Shown here in pieces: positions 461 to 25,947 of a stretch of DNA of 25,947 bases. The notes beneath the pieces are model-generated. The model was not told the DNA's origin. It saw only the letters and a list, made by a program, of their open reading frames with translations, and made no database searches. Origin of the DNA: a virus; the UHGV virus genome UHGV-0145877. One strand, 5' to 3'. The position numbers were made by a program, and so were the translations under genes. Positions within the stretch are counted from its first letter, which is position 1. Each line of letters opens with the position of its first letter.

Positions 461-1660
461 ATGGTCGTGAGCGTTTTTATGTTTGACTTGACGTTTATTA
501 TCTTTATTTTATCTTCCATCCCTGTATTTTTTGTTTTTTGGATTGCCGGAAGGTTTAAGAATGAATTAGTTGCAGACTCTTCTTTTGGATTGCGAGGTGA
601 TGACAATTTATCTTGCCTCAGGGGGTTGGCGGCTGTCATGGTCGCCCTTCACCATTCAGTATATATGTTCAATTATCTTTATCATGATAAATGGAGTATA
701 TTTTTGAATGATGGATTTGCGGCGAAGTCAAGCAACAATAGTTTATTGGCCATTGCATATTTTGGCTCCATTCCAGTCATGATATTCTTTATGATTACAG
801 GGTTTCTCTTCTTTAGAAAAATAATAAACAAACCAATAAACAATGCTGCAATATTTTTGTCGGCGCGAGTTAAGAGACTAATTCCAATGTATGCATTCAT
901 GGTGCTTTGCGTTGTTTGTGTTTCTGAATTAATTCGACCCAACGATAGCATTGGGATTCACAACATTATTGTTGAAGTTGGCCGATATTTTACGTTTGGT
1001 ATAATTGACCCTAATGGCCTTACACCTTCTATTCATGGATCTTTAATCGTTGGCGGGGTTATCTGGACTCTTGCATATGAGTGGGGTTTTTATATAATTT
1101 TACCATATATCTCTATGTTCGTAAAATCAATAAGAGATGCATGTTTTTCGGTAATAATTATGCTTTTCTCGGTATTAATTGCTTACCGCCAAGAGCTTAT
1201 CAGTGAAATGTTTGCCACTCTTCTCTTTTGCTTTATTGGTGGCTTTGTTGCAGCGCTAGCTTCTGGTTACCTAAAGAACAACGCTATCAAACAAGCCAAT
1301 AGCGTAATGATGACAATTGTGTACCTTTTATCGCTTATTGCTGTCGCATACTGGCAGGACTTTAACATTTACAATGTTTACATAGTGATTCCGCTATTTT
1401 TGTTTTTTTTAAGTGCGTGTACTGGCTCCAAAGCTTTTCAAATTATAAACACCAAGTTCTTCAAGGTGGCGGGTTCTGTAAGTTACAGCATTTATTTGAT
1501 GCATGGCTTAAGCATGGTAATGACCTTTAATTTCATTTCAAGCTCATTAAACTATACTGAGTTTGCAGCAATATCTTTATCAATTTGTGCAATGATAAGT
1601 TGCTTAACTTACTTATACATTGAAAAACCCGCAATGAAAAAACAGTTTAAAAACAATTAG
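461..1660 (+). CDS. Acyltransferase family 3 integral membrane protein (O-antigen or other surface polysaccharide acetyltransferase-like)
   Basis: 399-aa, highly hydrophobic, multi-helix ORF with an N-terminal motif LRGLAAVMVALHH typical of acyltransferase-3 enzymes. Strongly AT-rich relative to the phage structural genes and on the opposite strand. True start may be the ATG at 479 (MFDLT...). Confidence 0.7.
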   Translation: MVVSVFMFDLTFIIFILSSIPVFFVFWIAGRFKNELVADSSFGLRGDDNLSCLRGLAAVMVALHHSVYMFNYLYHDKWSIFLNDGFAAKSSNNSLLAIAYFGSIPVMIFFMITGFLFFRKIINKPINNAAIFLSARVKRLIPMYAFMVLCVVCVSELIRPNDSIGIHNIIVEVGRYFTFGIIDPNGLTPSIHGSLIVGGVIWTLAYEWGFYIILPYISMFVKSIRDACFSVIIMLFSVLIAYRQELISEMFATLLFCFIGGFVAALASGYLKNNAIKQANSVMMTIVYLLSLIAVAYWQDFNIYNVYIVIPLFLFFLSACTGSKAFQIINTKFFKVAGSVSYSIYLMHGLSMVMTFNFISSSLNYTEFAAISLSICAMISCLTYLYIEKPAMKKQFKNN

Positions 1661-1703: not shown

Positions 1704-2135
1704 TTAAGCTGGCTTAATAGGCCATTCTATGTCGGGAGCCTTGGTAACATTAATAGCTTCCAATTCATCAAGATAATCCAGCCATGCACCATACTGATAT
1801 TTTTCATCATTACGGAGCCGACCCATAGCCGCTTTTCCAGGCCATTGCTTGCTGTTCATGTTAGAGTTGGCCTGTTCAATAAGAATCTGCCTCTTGCGTT
1901 CTGCTGCTGCTACCTGCTCATCATGAGTTAGTGCTGGTAGTTCACCCCATTCCGGATAACCATCTTTTCCAGCGATGCGGACCTTCCCAGTTGGCGGTTC
2001 CTTTGTATATTCTGTAAATATATCTTCGTCACATTCAACACCATCAGTAGGCCAGCAATTTCCAGAAATATAATCTTCTTTCATTGATGTTGGATAGAAA
2101 GCGTTATTTATTGCACTGTACACATATTTTTCCAT
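1704..2135 (-). CDS. Tail fiber assembly protein (Tfa-like chaperone)
   Basis: 143-aa ORF immediately downstream of the tail fiber gene. The composition and C-terminal region (EKYQYGAWLDYLDELE...) are typical of lambda/P2-type tail fiber assembly proteins. Confidence 0.65.
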   Translation of the reverse strand: MEKYVYSAINNAFYPTSMKEDYISGNCWPTDGVECDEDIFTEYTKEPPTGKVRIAGKDGYPEWGELPALTHDEQVAAAERKRQILIEQANSNMNSKQWPGKAAMGRLRNDEKYQYGAWLDYLDELEAINVTKAPDIEWPIKPA

Positions 2136-20560: not shown

Positions 20561-22182
20561 CAGGCCTGTCTCCCTAGCAGCTCCCAGATGTTCAGGGCTG
20601 AATTCATTGGGGCATAGTTGATCATCACCGAGTCGGCAAGGTTTGGCGACCGGGTTCCATCAGGCTGTTTATCAATAACGATTTTTCCCACACTATTAAT
20701 GGAATAGGTCGGCTGCGAAAGCTCGATGATGAGTTTATCTTTGAGTGCCATGCTACTGCTGATTGAGATGATTTCGTCCGGGTTGTAAGCCATACCTTCA
20801 ACCACGGCGCGCCAGGTATTCTGAAAAAGTTTACGTAACCGCCACCAGCTCTGGGCTTTGGCGTTAGCGAAGAAGTCCTTGTTAAGACGTGCGGCTTGCC
20901 CGTTGTCCCCGCGAACAGCTTCATCATCCGGATCAAATACCGCGCCACTACCTCGAAACGGTGTGGCGAGTATTGACGGTCGGCGCGCAGCGTTACGCAG
21001 TTCGTTGATAGCGCGTGCATCGCCGCGAACGCCAGCGCCCAGCCCGTCCTCGTCAAAGCGAAACTCTTCGAGGTTGTCCTGTTCGCAAAAGCCGAAAACC
21101 TTCTCGACGGACTGATAAATGTCGCTGCCCACACCGGACCATTCCCGCACATTCTCCAGAAGGAAGCCATGACGGGTGGAAAAGGCATTTTTGTCCCTGC
21201 CTTCGTCGGCGACATCCATCGCGCCAAGTCGTTTGCCTGTTGGCTGGATCCCCAGTTTGATATGCGCATCAACGGCAGCCTGTACCCATTCGGATGGAAT
21301 CAGGACGCCTTCCGCTGATGCGCTGTAGTTCAGATCAAGTTCCTGTGCCACCACCACCGGATTATCGATTTTCTCGCATTCCCTGCGATACCACTCTTCA
21401 TCCTTGCGAGGATCATCCCGCCAGTGGAATGTGAATACCGGTATCTTCCCGCCATGACGCTTCTGAGCGAACGGGTTCGCCATGCCATTAACTGAACTCA
21501 GGTCAATACGGCAACGCGTCGTTTGTGACAACGCCGCATCAATCAGCAGAGGACGCTGAAGGAATGCAGCCTCATCAACCAGATAAAGCGTGGTACGGTC
21601 ACCACGACCAATATTATCGCCAGCCTCGCCTTTGATAACGGCACCAGTTTCAGGAAACTCAACACGCATATATGGCGCGTGCTTCTTCTCGCTCCACGAA
21701 CCGCGAAACTCTACAGGTAGTGTTTCCACGAACTTGCGCGCCTTCCAGAACAATGCTTTCGGGTCACCGGTGCTGTCGACGTATTCCTCTTTACGGGAGC
21801 CGAAACCGATAACCATTTCTTTGTTGAAGAGACAAAGCGAGCAGGCCAGTCCGATCGCGGTCCAACTGAGCCCCATTTCACGGGATTTTTCGGTAATACC
21901 ATTCTCCCGATTGCCCCAGCGTTCCATAATCCAGTGGATCCACTCCTCCTGCTTAGGGAAGAGTAAAAACGGAATGGTCACCGGCAGGCCATAATCAATA
22001 TTACGCGGGTCCGTTGTCATGCCCCAGTCGATGATGAACTGAGCCGGATTGGTTCGGTAAAACTGTTTTAGTGCAGGCAATATTTCAGGATTCTGGCGAA
22101 TGCGCTGTAAGCGTTCCATCCGCCATTCAAAAACCATCTGGTAATCAGGATGTTTAAAATCGAAGGGGAATGGTAACGGCAT
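20560..22182 (-). CDS. Terminase large subunit
   Basis: 540-aa ORF following the small terminase with a 2-nt gap. Size and position fit an ATPase-plus-nuclease terminase. Confidence 0.8.
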
Positions 22183-22184
22183 AC

Positions 22185-22736
22185 TTAGCCCATCATTTTT
22201 CTATACGCCTCTGCAGCCTGCTCCGGCGTTAAGTTGGTAATTTCTGTTCTGACTGGTCCTCCATCAGCGCCAGTCACTTCATTTTTGACGTTGTCTTTAA
22301 ACGCCTGAACAGAAACATGACGCCCAAGCAACTCAAGGTTTTTAACCTTATCAGGCCATTTGATTTTCTTCAGAAGTGCGGCGCTATCTGCGGATACCAT
22401 CTCCACGACATCCATTCCTGATAGCGTTGTGCGCCATACCTTAGGCCAGTCTTTAATGGGTTTTAGCTCACCGTTTTGCAGGAGAATGTCGAGCACATCC
22501 ATCTGGTCGATTTCAAGAAGGCGATTAAGTACGTATTCTGCATTTATTCCAACAGAGTCATTGCGTTGTGCTTTCAATTCGGAGATTCTGAATTGTATGT
22601 CAGGTTTTGACATGTTTTCGGACGCAGTACGGTTGGCTGTCTTTGCGCTGTACCCCGCCCGAATAGCCGCTTGCGTGGCGTTTAAATCGATGAGGTACTC
22701 GCGACAGAACATTTCTTGTTTGTCAGTGAGCGCCAT
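22185..22736 (-). CDS. Terminase small subunit
   Basis: N-terminus [30 protein letters not shown] is the characteristic small-terminase helix-turn-helix motif. AGGGGA Shine-Dalgarno upstream of the ATG at 22736. Confidence 0.75.
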
Positions 22737-22763
22737 ATTTTCCCCTGCTGATAAGGTAAATAA

Positions 22764-23288
22764 ATGAATCCTGAAATTTTTGAATCAAAGTTCATAATGA
22801 ACGAAGCAACTTGGCAACGAATTGAAAGGTTAGTAAATACTGAAGATGATATTGGTTTGGTTTTAAGAGTACATCTGATTACAGAAGCAATGATTGAGGC
22901 ATTTTGTTGCGCCGCTGTAGGTAACCAAAATCTATTTGATGGATTTGGTGAAAACTTAACCATGACCTATGCCGCAAAAATTCAGCTAGCTGCCAACCTC
23001 GGCCTAAATGAACACTCCGTCGCAGAACTTAAACGCCTAAATAGAATAAGAAATGTTCGCTCTCATCAAATAGACAACCCGGAAATAACTGACGCAGAAA
23101 TTGAATCATTACGAACATTTATTAGCCGAGGTGGTCAGGAAGATCTCATTAACTCAGCAAGATTCGGCATAAAAGTTGGAGACATTGAGCTGAATCTTAA
23201 CCGTCCAGATGCCAATAATCGTGAAAAATTCATAGCTATTCTTGGCAGCATCATCCTAAGGCTCACTAAACAAGTTGCAGGACAATAG
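22764..23288 (+). CDS. HEPN-motif protein (putative Abi-like RNase), lysogen-expressed accessory gene
   Basis: 174-aa plus-strand ORF, antisense to the late operon. R-x4-H motif (RNVRSH, R96 to H101, nt 23049-23066) within a predicted helical protein. Clearly AT-rich. ATG at 22764 with TAAGGT 8 nt upstream. Confidence 0.6.
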   Translation: MNPEIFESKFIMNEATWQRIERLVNTEDDIGLVLRVHLITEAMIEAFCCAAVGNQNLFDGFGENLTMTYAAKIQLAANLGLNEHSVAELKRLNRIRNVRSHQIDNPEITDAEIESLRTFISRGGQEDLINSARFGIKVGDIELNLNRPDANNREKFIAILGSIILRLTKQVAGQ

Positions 23289-23869
23289 AGATCATTGACT
23301 GAGCTAATTGATTGTTTTAGCGCATAAACCTATACCACAAAATAGCCACTTATCACGCTTCATCATTCAATTCTGGCGTGAACTGTATGCGCCTCACATT
23401 GTCGGGAGAGAAATACAGTCACTCTCCCGTCTCGATCACAAGCGGCACAAAGCCGTTAACCAACTCATGCTGAAATCGTGACGTCTTGCTCGTAACGGTT
23501 TCGCCTGTTTGGGTGGTTAACGTGATTTGGTAGATGTTGGACATTGAGAATCTCTTTATCCGCTTGTGGGGATATCAGTTAAGTTATCCCGTGTAGGGTA
23601 TAAGCCATTGTCGAGACCACTCATTGAATGGACTCTGCAATAACCGATGTCTTTCCATCAGTCCGCCACCACAAAGAATCTTTTTTGCCATAAGGCAGGA
23701 GGTTCATCTTTCAGTGGCTGCCAGTGTTATTTCCCCACTTACTGGCTTGGGTTGCTTCGCGGTACTGCCGTAACTGGTTACCCAGAATAAATTCCGGTTT
23801 CATTATCAAGCCCACCCGTAAATGGGCTTTGTAATGAAGAGTTGTTATGAAAATTGCTCTAAACAAGCA

Positions 23870-24358
23870 TTAATAGCCATCAGAAGTAATCGCTACAGAT
23901 TTCAATCCCTCAATGTCATCCTTGGACAGGGCGAACCATTCACCGTGCTTTCTCTTTGCGGCAAATTTGCGATGAAGCATGTTTTCAGTTTCTCTTCCAC
24001 CAGGGATCAGGCACTCAAGCTTCAAGCAGTCTGGTCCAGAGTTGCCAAGCGATTTGATGCGTTGTGGAATGTTGGATGAATACCCAATTTTGGTTAGCCC
24101 AGTTTTCTTCGATGACAAAACGTATACCTGAGGAGGTTCTTTTCTCTGGTCTTCCATTACACGTCTCATTGTTGCCATAAGTCCGCCGTGCATCAGCATT
24201 TCAACAAAGAACGCTGACCGAACACCTGACGACTTAAGCATGCCAGAAAATTCACTTGCCAATTCCATTAACTCTGCGATGTTTTCAGGAACTTTTTGGC
24301 AGTTATCTTCCTTGTATAAGGAAATCATTCTTTGAAGCTTTTCTTCTAATTGGTTCAT
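23870..24358 (-). CDS. T5orf172-like (GIY-YIG-like) domain protein
   Basis: C-terminal region VYVLSSKKTGLTKIGYSSNIPQRIKSL...HRKFAAKRKHGEWFALSKDDI resembles the T5orf172 domain. Probable start is the ATG at 24358 (AAGG Shine-Dalgarno); the ORF track extends to a GTG at 24514 with no Shine-Dalgarno. Confidence 0.5.
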   Translation of the reverse strand: MNQLEEKLQRMISLYKEDNCQKVPENIAELMELASEFSGMLKSSGVRSAFFVEMLMHGGLMATMRRVMEDQRKEPPQVYVLSSKKTGLTKIGYSSNIPQRIKSLGNSGPDCLKLECLIPGGRETENMLHRKFAAKRKHGEWFALSKDDIEGLKSVAITSDGY

Positions 24359-24699
24359 AGCGTCTTTACCTTTTAGAAAGTGAGCCTGTCTCACAGAAAA
24401 GCCGCCCGAGAGAGGTTGCCACCTATAACGGCATTTCTCAGGCTCACTTACTGAAAGGCTCTCGTTAATATGCGCGTGAGATGCGCGGTTTACTGCAGAT
24501 GTAAAAAGCCCCACAAATGCGAGGCTAAATCCTGGTATTTGTAATGACTGGCTCTTATCTCAACGCGGCCCCTTACCGCGCGCCAGATGCTCAATCTCAA
24601 GCATCAGCAATGAGATGTTTAATCTGGATTCACTCCAGAAGTGATCACCACCCTGTCTACAGAGCCAGATGTGAAGGATGATGAGTAAAATTATCGCTA

Positions 24700-25167
24700 T
24701 CATCGAAGGCATTGCGTCCTGATGTATTCCTGAAGCGTTCTCAGTGCTGTTTGGTCGCGGATAATTCCGTCCCGGACACCGAGAACGTTTCGTCCAGCAA
24801 CTGGAGAGAGTTCGACGGTGGCATCATTGCCCATGCCGGAGGCGCTGGAGGCTTCGGCTGAGGATGGCACAGGGCATTTTCCTTTGACGAACACCCGACC
24901 ACCATTATCAAGCTTGCGCCGAAGAGCATCATTTTCAGCTTTCGCATCAGCTAACTCCTTCGTGTATTTAGCATCGAGTGCATCAGCAGAACGCTGGCGC
25001 TGCTGCATGTCAGTAATGGTGGCGGTCGCCTGCTTCAGCTCACTGACTTTTTTATCGCGCTGCTCTTTGTAGGCGATGGCGTTATCACGGTAATGATTAA
25101 CAGCCCATGACAGGCAGACGATGATGCAGATAACCAGAGCGGAGATAATCGCGGTTACTCTGCTCAT
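24700..25167 (-). CDS. Rz: Rz-like inner-membrane spanin
   Basis: N-terminus [31 protein letters not shown] matches lambda Rz as I recall it. ATGA overlap with R. C-terminal half diverges from lambda. Confidence 0.85.
24741..24947 (-). CDS. Rz1: Rz1-like outer-membrane lipoprotein spanin, embedded in Rz in the +1 frame
   Basis: 68-aa ORF wholly inside Rz. Signal peptide with lipobox VVGC and a proline-rich stretch ([11 protein letters not shown]), as in lambda Rz1. Confidence 0.8.
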
Positions 25168-25640
25168 GCCTCAATCTCTCTGACCGTTCCGCCTACTTCT
25201 TTGAATTTTGCAATCAGGCTGTCAGCCTTATGCTCGAACTGACCATAACCAGCCCCCGGCAGTGAAGCCCAGATATTGCTGCAACGGTCGATTGCCTGAC
25301 GGATATCACCGCGATCAATCATCGGTAAAGCGCCACGCTCTTTAATCTGCTGCAGTGCAACAGCGTCCTGGCTTTTCGGAGAGAAGTCTTTCAGGCCAAG
25401 CTGCTTACGATAGGCATCCCACCAACGGGAAAGAAGCTGGTAACGTCCGGCTGCTGTTGATTTGAGTTTTGGGTTTAGCGTGACAAGTTTGCGAGGGTGA
25501 TCGGAGTAATCAGTGAATAGCTCTCCGCCAACAATGACGTCATAACCATGATTTCTGGTTTTCTGCCGTCCGTTATCAGTTCCCTCTGACCACGCCAGCA
25601 TATCGAGGAACGCCTTACGTTGATTATTGATTTCCACCAT
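25164..25640 (-). CDS. R: Endolysin (lambda R-type lytic transglycosylase)
   Basis: [39 protein letters not shown]... is near-identical to lambda R as I remember it. Confidence 0.9.
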
Positions 25641-25947
25641 CTTCTACTCCGGCTTTTTTAGCAGCGAAGCGTTTGATAAGCGAACCAATCGTGTCAGTAC
25701 CGATGTAGCCGATGAACACGCTCGTTATATAAGCGAGATTGCTACTTAGTCCGGCGAAGTCGAGAAGGTCACGAATGAACCAGGCGATAATGGCGCACAT
25801 CGTTGCGTCGATTACTGTTTTTGTAAACGCACCGCCATTATATCTGCCGCGAAGGTACGCCATTGCAAACGCAAGGATTGCCCCGATGCCTTGTTCCTTT
25901 GCCGCGAGAATGGCGGCTAACAGGTCATGTTTTTCTGGCATCTCCAT
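25624..25947 (-). CDS. S: Holin (lambda S-type, class I) with dual-start Met1/Met3
   Basis: [39 protein letters not shown]... is near-identical to lambda S107. The start codon occupies the last 3 nt of the window, so upstream context is not visible. Confidence 0.9.

Follow-up and report, generated by a model that had tools for sequence, protein, structure and literature searches.

A candidate prophage-encoded abortive-infection gene: a stand-alone HEPN protein distantly related to HepS, encoded antisense to the late operon of a lambdoid phage

Introduction

The closest characterized relative of the gene analyzed here is HepS (STM14_3211), which is encoded by the prophage Gifsy-1 of Salmonella Typhimurium and has been solved structurally (PDB 9oij, 9oik; Sargen et al., Nature 2026, PMC13043305). 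Sensor and effector of abortive infection (Abi) are united in this one HEPN protein. In its resting state, it is constitutively expressed and non-toxic, even when overexpressed, forms a tetramer with occluded R100/H105 sites, and needs no antidote. It is triggered by a stretch of 32 residues from the siphovirus tail-tip protein J, which binds HepS at its N- and C-terminal parts in a composite beta-sheet comprising the N-terminal S13/D15, the C-terminal S202/T203 and the trigger peptide. Active HepS cleaves specific tRNA anticodon loops, and K71 has been proposed to read the anticodon. Both R100 and H105 are required for RNA cleavage, the exchange H105A abolishes defence, and I107A abolishes activity. 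Gifsy-1 itself escapes self-targeting via a Phe-to-Ile variant in its own J protein, and 393 HepS homologues were curated in the original study (PMC13043305). In the present study we analyzed a gene at positions 22764..23288 (plus strand) in a stretch of 25,947 nucleotides from the UHGV virus genome UHGV-0145877, hereafter called the window, which encodes a distant relative of HepS. Since the concept became known with HepS in 2026, the window gene is a divergent variant and not a new kind of system.

A second relevant system has been described in Staphylococcus aureus prophages, where phage tail proteins activate the HEPN RNase defence proteins Tha-1 and Tha-2 (PMC11087260). Tha is encoded in the cI operon, i.e. 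in the lysogeny module, and is inhibited by the small antisense-encoded protein Ith; antisense transcription in a 'noncontiguous operon' couples its expression to the switch between lysogeny and lysis (PMC11087260). No sequence or structural match between the window protein and Tha was found.

Results and Discussion

Conservation of the HEPN gene

The plus-strand open reading frame (ORF) at 22764..23288 encodes 174 amino acids, as stated in the preliminary description of this DNA, and begins with an ATG codon and ends with a stop codon. A Shine-Dalgarno-like AAGG is situated at 22753-22756, 7 nt 5' of the ATG. With a GC content of 0.387 and a GC content at third codon positions (GC3) of 0.297, the gene differs from the whole window (GC 0.497) and from terL (GC 0.526, GC3 0.571), which agrees with the strong AT-richness noted earlier. 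The R-x4-H HEPN motif is present as R96-N97-V98-R99-S100-H101 (RNVRSH) and is encoded at nt 23049-23066 on the plus strand, exactly where it had been placed before. Taken alone, R-x4-H is weak evidence, because it appears in 21% of shuffled versions of the protein (RN-x3-H in 2%). Hence, the case for a HEPN protein rests on conservation and structure, and the RNVRSH motif becomes meaningful because neither the 15 close nor the 139 diverse relatives deviate at R96, N97 or H101.

The ORF matches phrog_5483, a family of unknown function, with E = 1.7e-50. Relatives in a collection of 5.8 billion proteins fall into 16 clusters, all from Enterobacterales, and among 5,426 complete E. coli genomes just 2 carry the gene, with its product annotated by RefSeq as hypothetical protein. 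The alignment of the 15 close relatives, which are full-length homologues with identities down to 38%, contains the invariant block R96-N97-x-R99-S100-H101-Q-I-D-N as well as invariant E27-D28-D29, R35, H37, E41 and E45. An exhaustive profile search among 1.84 billion representatives retrieved 366 relatives at E <= 1e-3, nearly all of them single-domain proteins of 160-210 amino acids. For a diverse alignment, 139 of these were used, which are 18-74% identical to the query and have a mean column identity of 13%. Here, E41, R96, N97 and H101 are the sole invariant columns, and H37 is conserved to at least 90%. The restriction of invariance to these four columns at such a low mean column identity is what one expects of an active site that has been kept, and the canonical HEPN signature claimed earlier is thereby kept across the entire range of relatives. 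Compared with an 89%-identical relative, the ratio of non-synonymous to synonymous substitutions (dN/dS) of the HEPN gene is ~0.19; for more distant relatives dS is saturated and dN amounts to 0.17-0.24. The HEPN ORF is a real, conserved gene.

Fold prediction and relationship to HepS

The model that AlphaFold2 computed from the family alignment is all-alpha apart from a small hairpin and has high confidence (pLDDT 88.3, pTM 0.85). The predicted structure has the all-alpha HEPN core fold, and the conserved R-x4-6-H motif of the HEPN superfamily is present as well. HepS was found to be the nearest solved relative. The HEPN reading of the preliminary description is supported by this check of the fold. 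The comparison with HepS is based on PDB profile alignments. The profile of the 15-member family matches HepS with E = 2e-4 across the motif helix, and the 139-member profile with E = 1.8e-17 over residues 26-194. In these alignments at ~20% identity, HepS R100, N101, H105 and the gating residue I107 align with the invariant R96, N97, H101 and I103, respectively. Homology to HepS is detectable by sequence and by structure, and our data support the assignment of the window protein as a predicted HEPN-fold protein of a distant HepS clade. Weak Pfam matches of the family members are confined to the HEPN clan (RiboL-PSP-HEPN, Cthe2314, DUF4145, Abi_2, Apea, MtlR, HepT and Csm6). A Foldseek search against the BFVD viral structures gave no significant match to the HEPN protein, and a 55-amino-acid fragment of HepS returned nothing from the phage collection by tblastn and no candidates from the protein database.

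The window protein resembles HepS in being stand-alone, shorter than 250 amino acids, prophage-borne and without a co-occurring partner gene, whereas the two differ in length (174 amino acids compared to more than 200 in HepS) and in location. In Gifsy-1, HepS is encoded between replication and antirepressor genes, while the window gene is situated antisense between lysis and packaging genes. A further difference regards the carriers, which in the window lineage include myovirus- and podovirus-type prophages without a J tail tip. Nothing in J of phi80 corresponds with confidence to the lambda J 902-933 peptide, and the tail fibre of FSL SP-016 contains a weak counterpart (E = 0.13, with the Phe retained). 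The existence of a solved and characterized relative makes the Abi hypothesis much likelier and, at the same time, much less novel.

Position and accessory status

All contexts of the HEPN lineage that were examined are phages or prophages, and in 55 of 55 viral loci as well as in 7 other contexts the gene is antisense and flanked by lysis genes on one side and packaging genes on the other. A comparison of the slot across related prophages had been suggested in the preliminary description, and the HEPN lineage proved to be antisense in every one of these viral loci. In the close clade, represented by 41 IMG/VR loci, a recognizable lysis marker (35 loci) is always found downstream and a recognizable terS/terL marker (27 loci) always upstream, all on the opposite strand and with zero exceptions. 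The same slot and orientation were observed in 14 of 14 viral loci of the phi80-gp52 clade, which were gathered by a single-protein scan with phi80 gp52. The slot is kept in prophages of E. coli, Enterobacter, Citrobacter and Pantoea, in the Salmonella phage FSL SP-016 (59% identical) and in phi80, although the flanking terminases (Terminase_2, GpA, DUF1441), the lysis genes and the tail types vary between the loci. The phi80 member, gp52 (YP_007947985.1, hypothetical protein), is 30% identical over 87% of the query (E = 5e-15), was retrieved by the family profile at E = 4.6e-21 and carries the motif RNDLAH. Its gene is located between rha/lysis and cos, i.e. in the same slot and orientation as in the window. 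It differs from the window protein in its size of 204 amino acids with a longer C-terminus, in belonging to another sub-clade and in being carried by a siphovirus. Being uncharacterized, phi80 gp52 tells nothing about function, but with it a classic phage that is tractable in experiments becomes available.

In phage lambda, the bor gene is a lysogen-expressed accessory gene that likewise runs antisense to the late operon, in the interval from the lysis genes to cos. Its product is a lipoprotein for serum resistance. The analogy is one of position alone, and bor is unrelated in sequence and function to the window HEPN gene.

In the window, the HEPN gene is separated from the divergent small terminase gene terS (22185..22736, minus strand; Pfam Terminase_2, E = 9.9e-40) by a gap of exactly 27 bp (22737..22763), counted from the HEPN start to the terS start codon at 22736, as had been stated before. 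On its other side, the slot is bounded promoter-proximally by the lysis cassette (24700..25947, minus strand) with genes for Rz (24700-25167), endolysin (25164-25640) and holin (25624-25947). In E. coli SW4848, the annotation of the equivalent genes reads holin, glycoside hydrolase 104 and lysis protein. The neighbours named in the preliminary description, all on the minus strand, were therefore correct, and late transcription must cross the HEPN gene in antisense before reaching terS. One correction is necessary, because the late operon in the window is that of a lambdoid phage with a myovirus tail (Baseplate_J, DUF3383). Over ~19 kb, its structural genes share 97% identity with those of the myovirus-tailed lambdoid phage vB_EcoM-611R5. 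In this closest sequenced phage the slot is empty, and Rz is followed by terS after 61 bp; hence, the ~1.9 kb by which both genes are separated in the window represent cargo, in line with the earlier idea of an accessory gene in a bor-like slot. Moreover, the HEPN gene is absent from nearly all related phages.

The gene belongs to a mosaic module (22294..23609), in which it is joined to the 5' two-thirds of terS on one side and to ~320 bp downstream on the other. The identity of 98.3% between the window and E. coli SW4848, whose prophage has P22-type head genes, is confined to 22294-23609. An Enterobacter prophage is 73% identical to the window over 22294-23288, with the same left edge and with the stop codon as right end. 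Since both identity blocks begin at 22294, the HEPN gene is passed on along with the 5' two-thirds of terS. The low GC content, the empty slot in the closest phage, the rarity in E. coli and this mosaic movement collectively point to the accessory status of the gene. As a separate observation, the recombination junction at 22294 inside terS is common to two independent comparisons, and the C-terminus of terS goes with the terL type. At least three terL contexts flank copies that encode a 100%-identical HEPN protein (loci L012-L014).

A conserved partner gene was not found, because the neighbours vary among the loci compared and the small ORFs downstream are mutually unrelated. The single-gene character proposed earlier therefore holds for these loci. 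The hypothesis of a conserved partner was rejected, since the small convergent ORFs are unrelated between loci and a divergent ORF of 111 amino acids is limited to one sub-clade. This 111-amino-acid ORF is conserved and always situated ~76 bp 5' of the HEPN gene in the sub-clade with 54-59% identity (L021-L044; L003, 4589-4924; L006, 5595-5927), is 68% identical between two examples and is absent from the clade of the window. In phi80-like loci, its position is usually taken by gp51, annotated as 'Fur-regulated protein'.

Proposed function and alternative explanations

We consider that the gene probably encodes a stand-alone HepS-type HEPN RNase, carried as a moron by lambdoid prophages, that would defend the lysogen against other phages by abortive infection. 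This reading draws on a protein with HEPN fold, invariant catalytic residues and homology to HepS and on a gene that stands alone, is accessory and is located on prophages, while the expression in lysogeny, the auto-inhibited oligomeric state, the RNA that is cut and the anti-phage phenotype are carried over from HepS by analogy. Accordingly worded as a model, the gene's own promoter would drive production of the protein in the lysogen, in the form of an auto-inhibited oligomer for which no antitoxin would be needed. A protein of the infecting phage would then bind and re-align R96 and H101 of paired protomers to a composite HEPN active site, and the activated enzyme would cut RNA, most likely tRNA anticodon loops, and thereby stop phage protein synthesis.

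Several observations weigh against this assignment or restrict how far the properties of HepS can be transferred. The identity to HepS is low (18-22%), and no Pfam, NCBIfam or PADLOC (2023) model matched the window protein at threshold; DUF6548, the one Pfam match, remained below the cut-off with E = 0.029. The residue aligned to HepS K71 is not conserved, and H37, which is nearly invariant in the window family, corresponds to Asn in HepS, hence the surroundings of the active site may differ. Furthermore, the window protein ends ~30 residues short of the HepS C-terminus, which forms the trigger sheet together with the N-terminus. In the AlphaFold model it terminates at residue 174 within the helix 152-173, and its N-terminus is predicted to be helical. 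Consistently, the alignment of the 139-member profile stops near HepS residue 194, leaving the last ~30 residues of HepS without counterpart, and the trigger-binding terminal segments of HepS (S13, D15, S202, T203) were not found in the window protein. Finally, a promoter scan and a relaxed scan of the window revealed no credible sigma-70 promoter upstream of the HEPN ATG. The profile alignments and the model thus suggest that the window protein and HepS have the catalytic core in common, while the sensing surface probably differs. The trigger is probably different as well, since the window protein lacks the terminal segments with which HepS binds its own.

Other explanations of the gene have to be considered. 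Its position and orientation are stricter than expected for freely shuffled defence cargo, and it is co-inherited with the N-terminal part of terS. Both would fit to an HEPN RNase that serves the cycle of the phage itself, for example by tuning transcripts of host or prophage in lysogeny, as an addiction or retention toxin or in a lytic step, with the slot being tied to late expression. Such a role appears rather improbable, because the gene is missing in the closest phage, where the Rz-terS junction is intact, as well as in almost all related phages, and is hence dispensable for the life cycle. In addition, its nearest characterized relative HepS is a defence protein (PMC13043305), and low GC content and mosaic spread are typical of morons. 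The antisense arrangement could also be related to a toxin-antitoxin pair, in which the antidote would be a small overlapping antisense gene, as with Tha and Ith, or the late transcript itself, acting from the antisense strand as RNA antitoxin. Antidotes are common among HEPN toxins, HEPN-MNT structures occurred among the matches, and Ith inhibits Tha (PMC11087260). Moreover, a late-strand ORF of 93 amino acids overlaps the 5' end of the gene, and antisense late transcription spans the gene entirely. However, relatives at 72-76% identity have lost this ORF, none of the neighbouring proteins is kept from locus to locus, and no MNT gene was found nearby in the neighbourhoods examined. Likewise, regarding the HEPN-MNT (HepT) systems, the window protein gave no HepT-like match and no nucleotidyltransferase gene is present in any of these neighbourhoods. 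Since HepS needs no antidote and is non-toxic when overexpressed (PMC13043305), we regard a toxin-antitoxin pair as very unlikely.

The MtlR/YggD proteins (PDB 3c8g, 3brj, 6kcr) come second to HepS in structural similarity to the window protein, and the gene might encode a catalytically inactive HEPN-fold regulator of this type, which would control transcription by binding protein or nucleic acid. There is little chance that this applies, because HepS outscores MtlR by structure as well as by sequence, the window protein has no Pfam MtlR match at E <= 1, and only 1 of the 139 relatives matches. MtlR proteins are chromosomal regulators and not phage cargo, whereas the window family keeps an invariant R-N-x3-H, and the invariance of R96, N97 and H101 over 139 sequences speaks for a retained active site. 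At the far end of the scale, the ORF could be spurious or decaying and its R-x4-H coincidental, given the frequency of this pattern in shuffled sequences and the mere label of hypothetical protein in RefSeq. The full-length homologues with invariant motif blocks down to 38% identity, the 366 relatives, the confident predicted fold and the dN/dS of ~0.19 effectively refute this explanation.

If the HepS-type defence function is confirmed, the paradigm that one protein senses infection and executes Abi would extend to a second, divergent clade with another sensing surface and hence probably a different phage trigger. It would also reach to E. coli and its relatives and to phi80 gp52 as an easy experimental entry. 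The different sensing surface, the phi80 member and the exception-free antisense placement in the late operon are the points of remaining interest, and the latter provides a testable case for how prophages avoid their own abortive-infection genes.

Expression signals and antisense transcription

The preliminary description had assumed that the promoter of the HEPN gene must lie within or beyond the terS coding sequence. This location is reasonable in view of the 27-bp gap, the co-inheritance with the 5' two-thirds of terS and the conservation of terS, but a convincing promoter was not found there. The best candidate is a -10-like CATATT at 22734-22739, which overlaps the terS start codon and lacks a -35 element. 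Among sub-clades the sequence of the gap of 27-30 bp differs, while the adjoining terS coding sequence is conserved, and this divergence of the gap next to conserved terS sequence fits a promoter that reaches into terS.

The sister clade (loci L021-L044, L003 and L006) has a TATACT/TATAAT -10-like element ~55-60 bp 5' of the HEPN start that is conserved despite divergent flanks. Next to it comes an inverted repeat with arms that covary between loci, e.g. AGTGCTC...GAGCACT, and both together occupy ~40-70 bp 5' of the start. This arrangement suggests a structured 5' leader or an operator and does not exist in the clade of the window. Clear hairpins directly after the stop codon were seen in relatives of the HEPN gene.

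The coupling of Tha expression to antisense transcription provides a precedent for a regulatory reading of the antisense placement in the window lineage. Both systems differ in that Tha needs an antisense-encoded inhibitor, whereas in the window lineage antisense ORFs are not conserved and the gene is located in a slot of the late operon. The 93-amino-acid late-strand ORF at 22682-22963 was examined as a possible ith-like overlapping antisense gene and rejected for lack of conservation, because it is present solely in the window and in the 89%-identical relative. Though we assign it a low probability, the nesting of the gene antisense in a Q-dependent late operon may itself be functional, in that antiterminated late transcription, entering from the opposite side, would shut off the HEPN gene at induction by polymerase collision or double-stranded RNA. 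By the same still rather doubtful reading, the prophage would silence its own Abi nuclease just when it makes the late structural proteins that could trigger it. If true, this would be self-immunity by genome architecture, unlike the escape from the trigger in HepS/Gifsy or the inhibitor protein in Tha/Ith. Such an architectural shut-off would explain why the slot is constant despite unrelated terminases, lysis cassettes and tails.

Further features of the slot and the window

Besides the HEPN gene, the slot contains a second cargo gene, a T5orf172/MUG113 (GIY-YIG-like) ORF at 23870..24514 on the minus strand (MUG113, E = 1.4e-14; T5orf172, E = 4.9e-10; phrog_4284, E = 4.8e-91). Its homologues in the phages HK106 and epsilon34 are annotated as GIY-YIG nuclease family, and the PADLOC model PDC-S57 matches it weakly (E = 1.2e-5). 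Since phrog_4284 covers only residues 41-214, the true start is probably an internal Met and not the listed GTG.

Between both cargo genes, a truncated small late-strand ORF of 41 amino acids is situated at 23419..23544 (minus strand; phrog_6581, E = 3e-13), which is 56% identical to the first 41 amino acids of a 68-amino-acid protein from an Enterobacter prophage (L004, 6572-6778). At a position that is Trp in the Enterobacter homologue, the window ORF contains an in-frame stop codon, and the similarity goes on past this stop, which could be a nonsense mutation or the sign of a decaying gene. A strong hairpin at 23395-23432 (CGGGAGAG-N11-CTCTCCCG) is located at the 3' end of the small ORF, with a U-tract on neither strand. 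Beyond the ORF, ~325 bp (23545-23869) are apparently non-coding. An Rfam search over 22000-25947 gave just a sub-threshold chance match to mir-627.

At the other end, the window left of ~2481 is not common to vB_EcoM-611R5. Just past the tail-fibre assembly gene (1704-2135, minus strand) and on the strand opposite to the tail genes, the region 461-1660 (plus strand) encodes an Acyl_transf_3 acyltransferase of 399 amino acids (Pfam, E = 2e-22), which is probably an O-antigen-modifying lysogenic-conversion gene.
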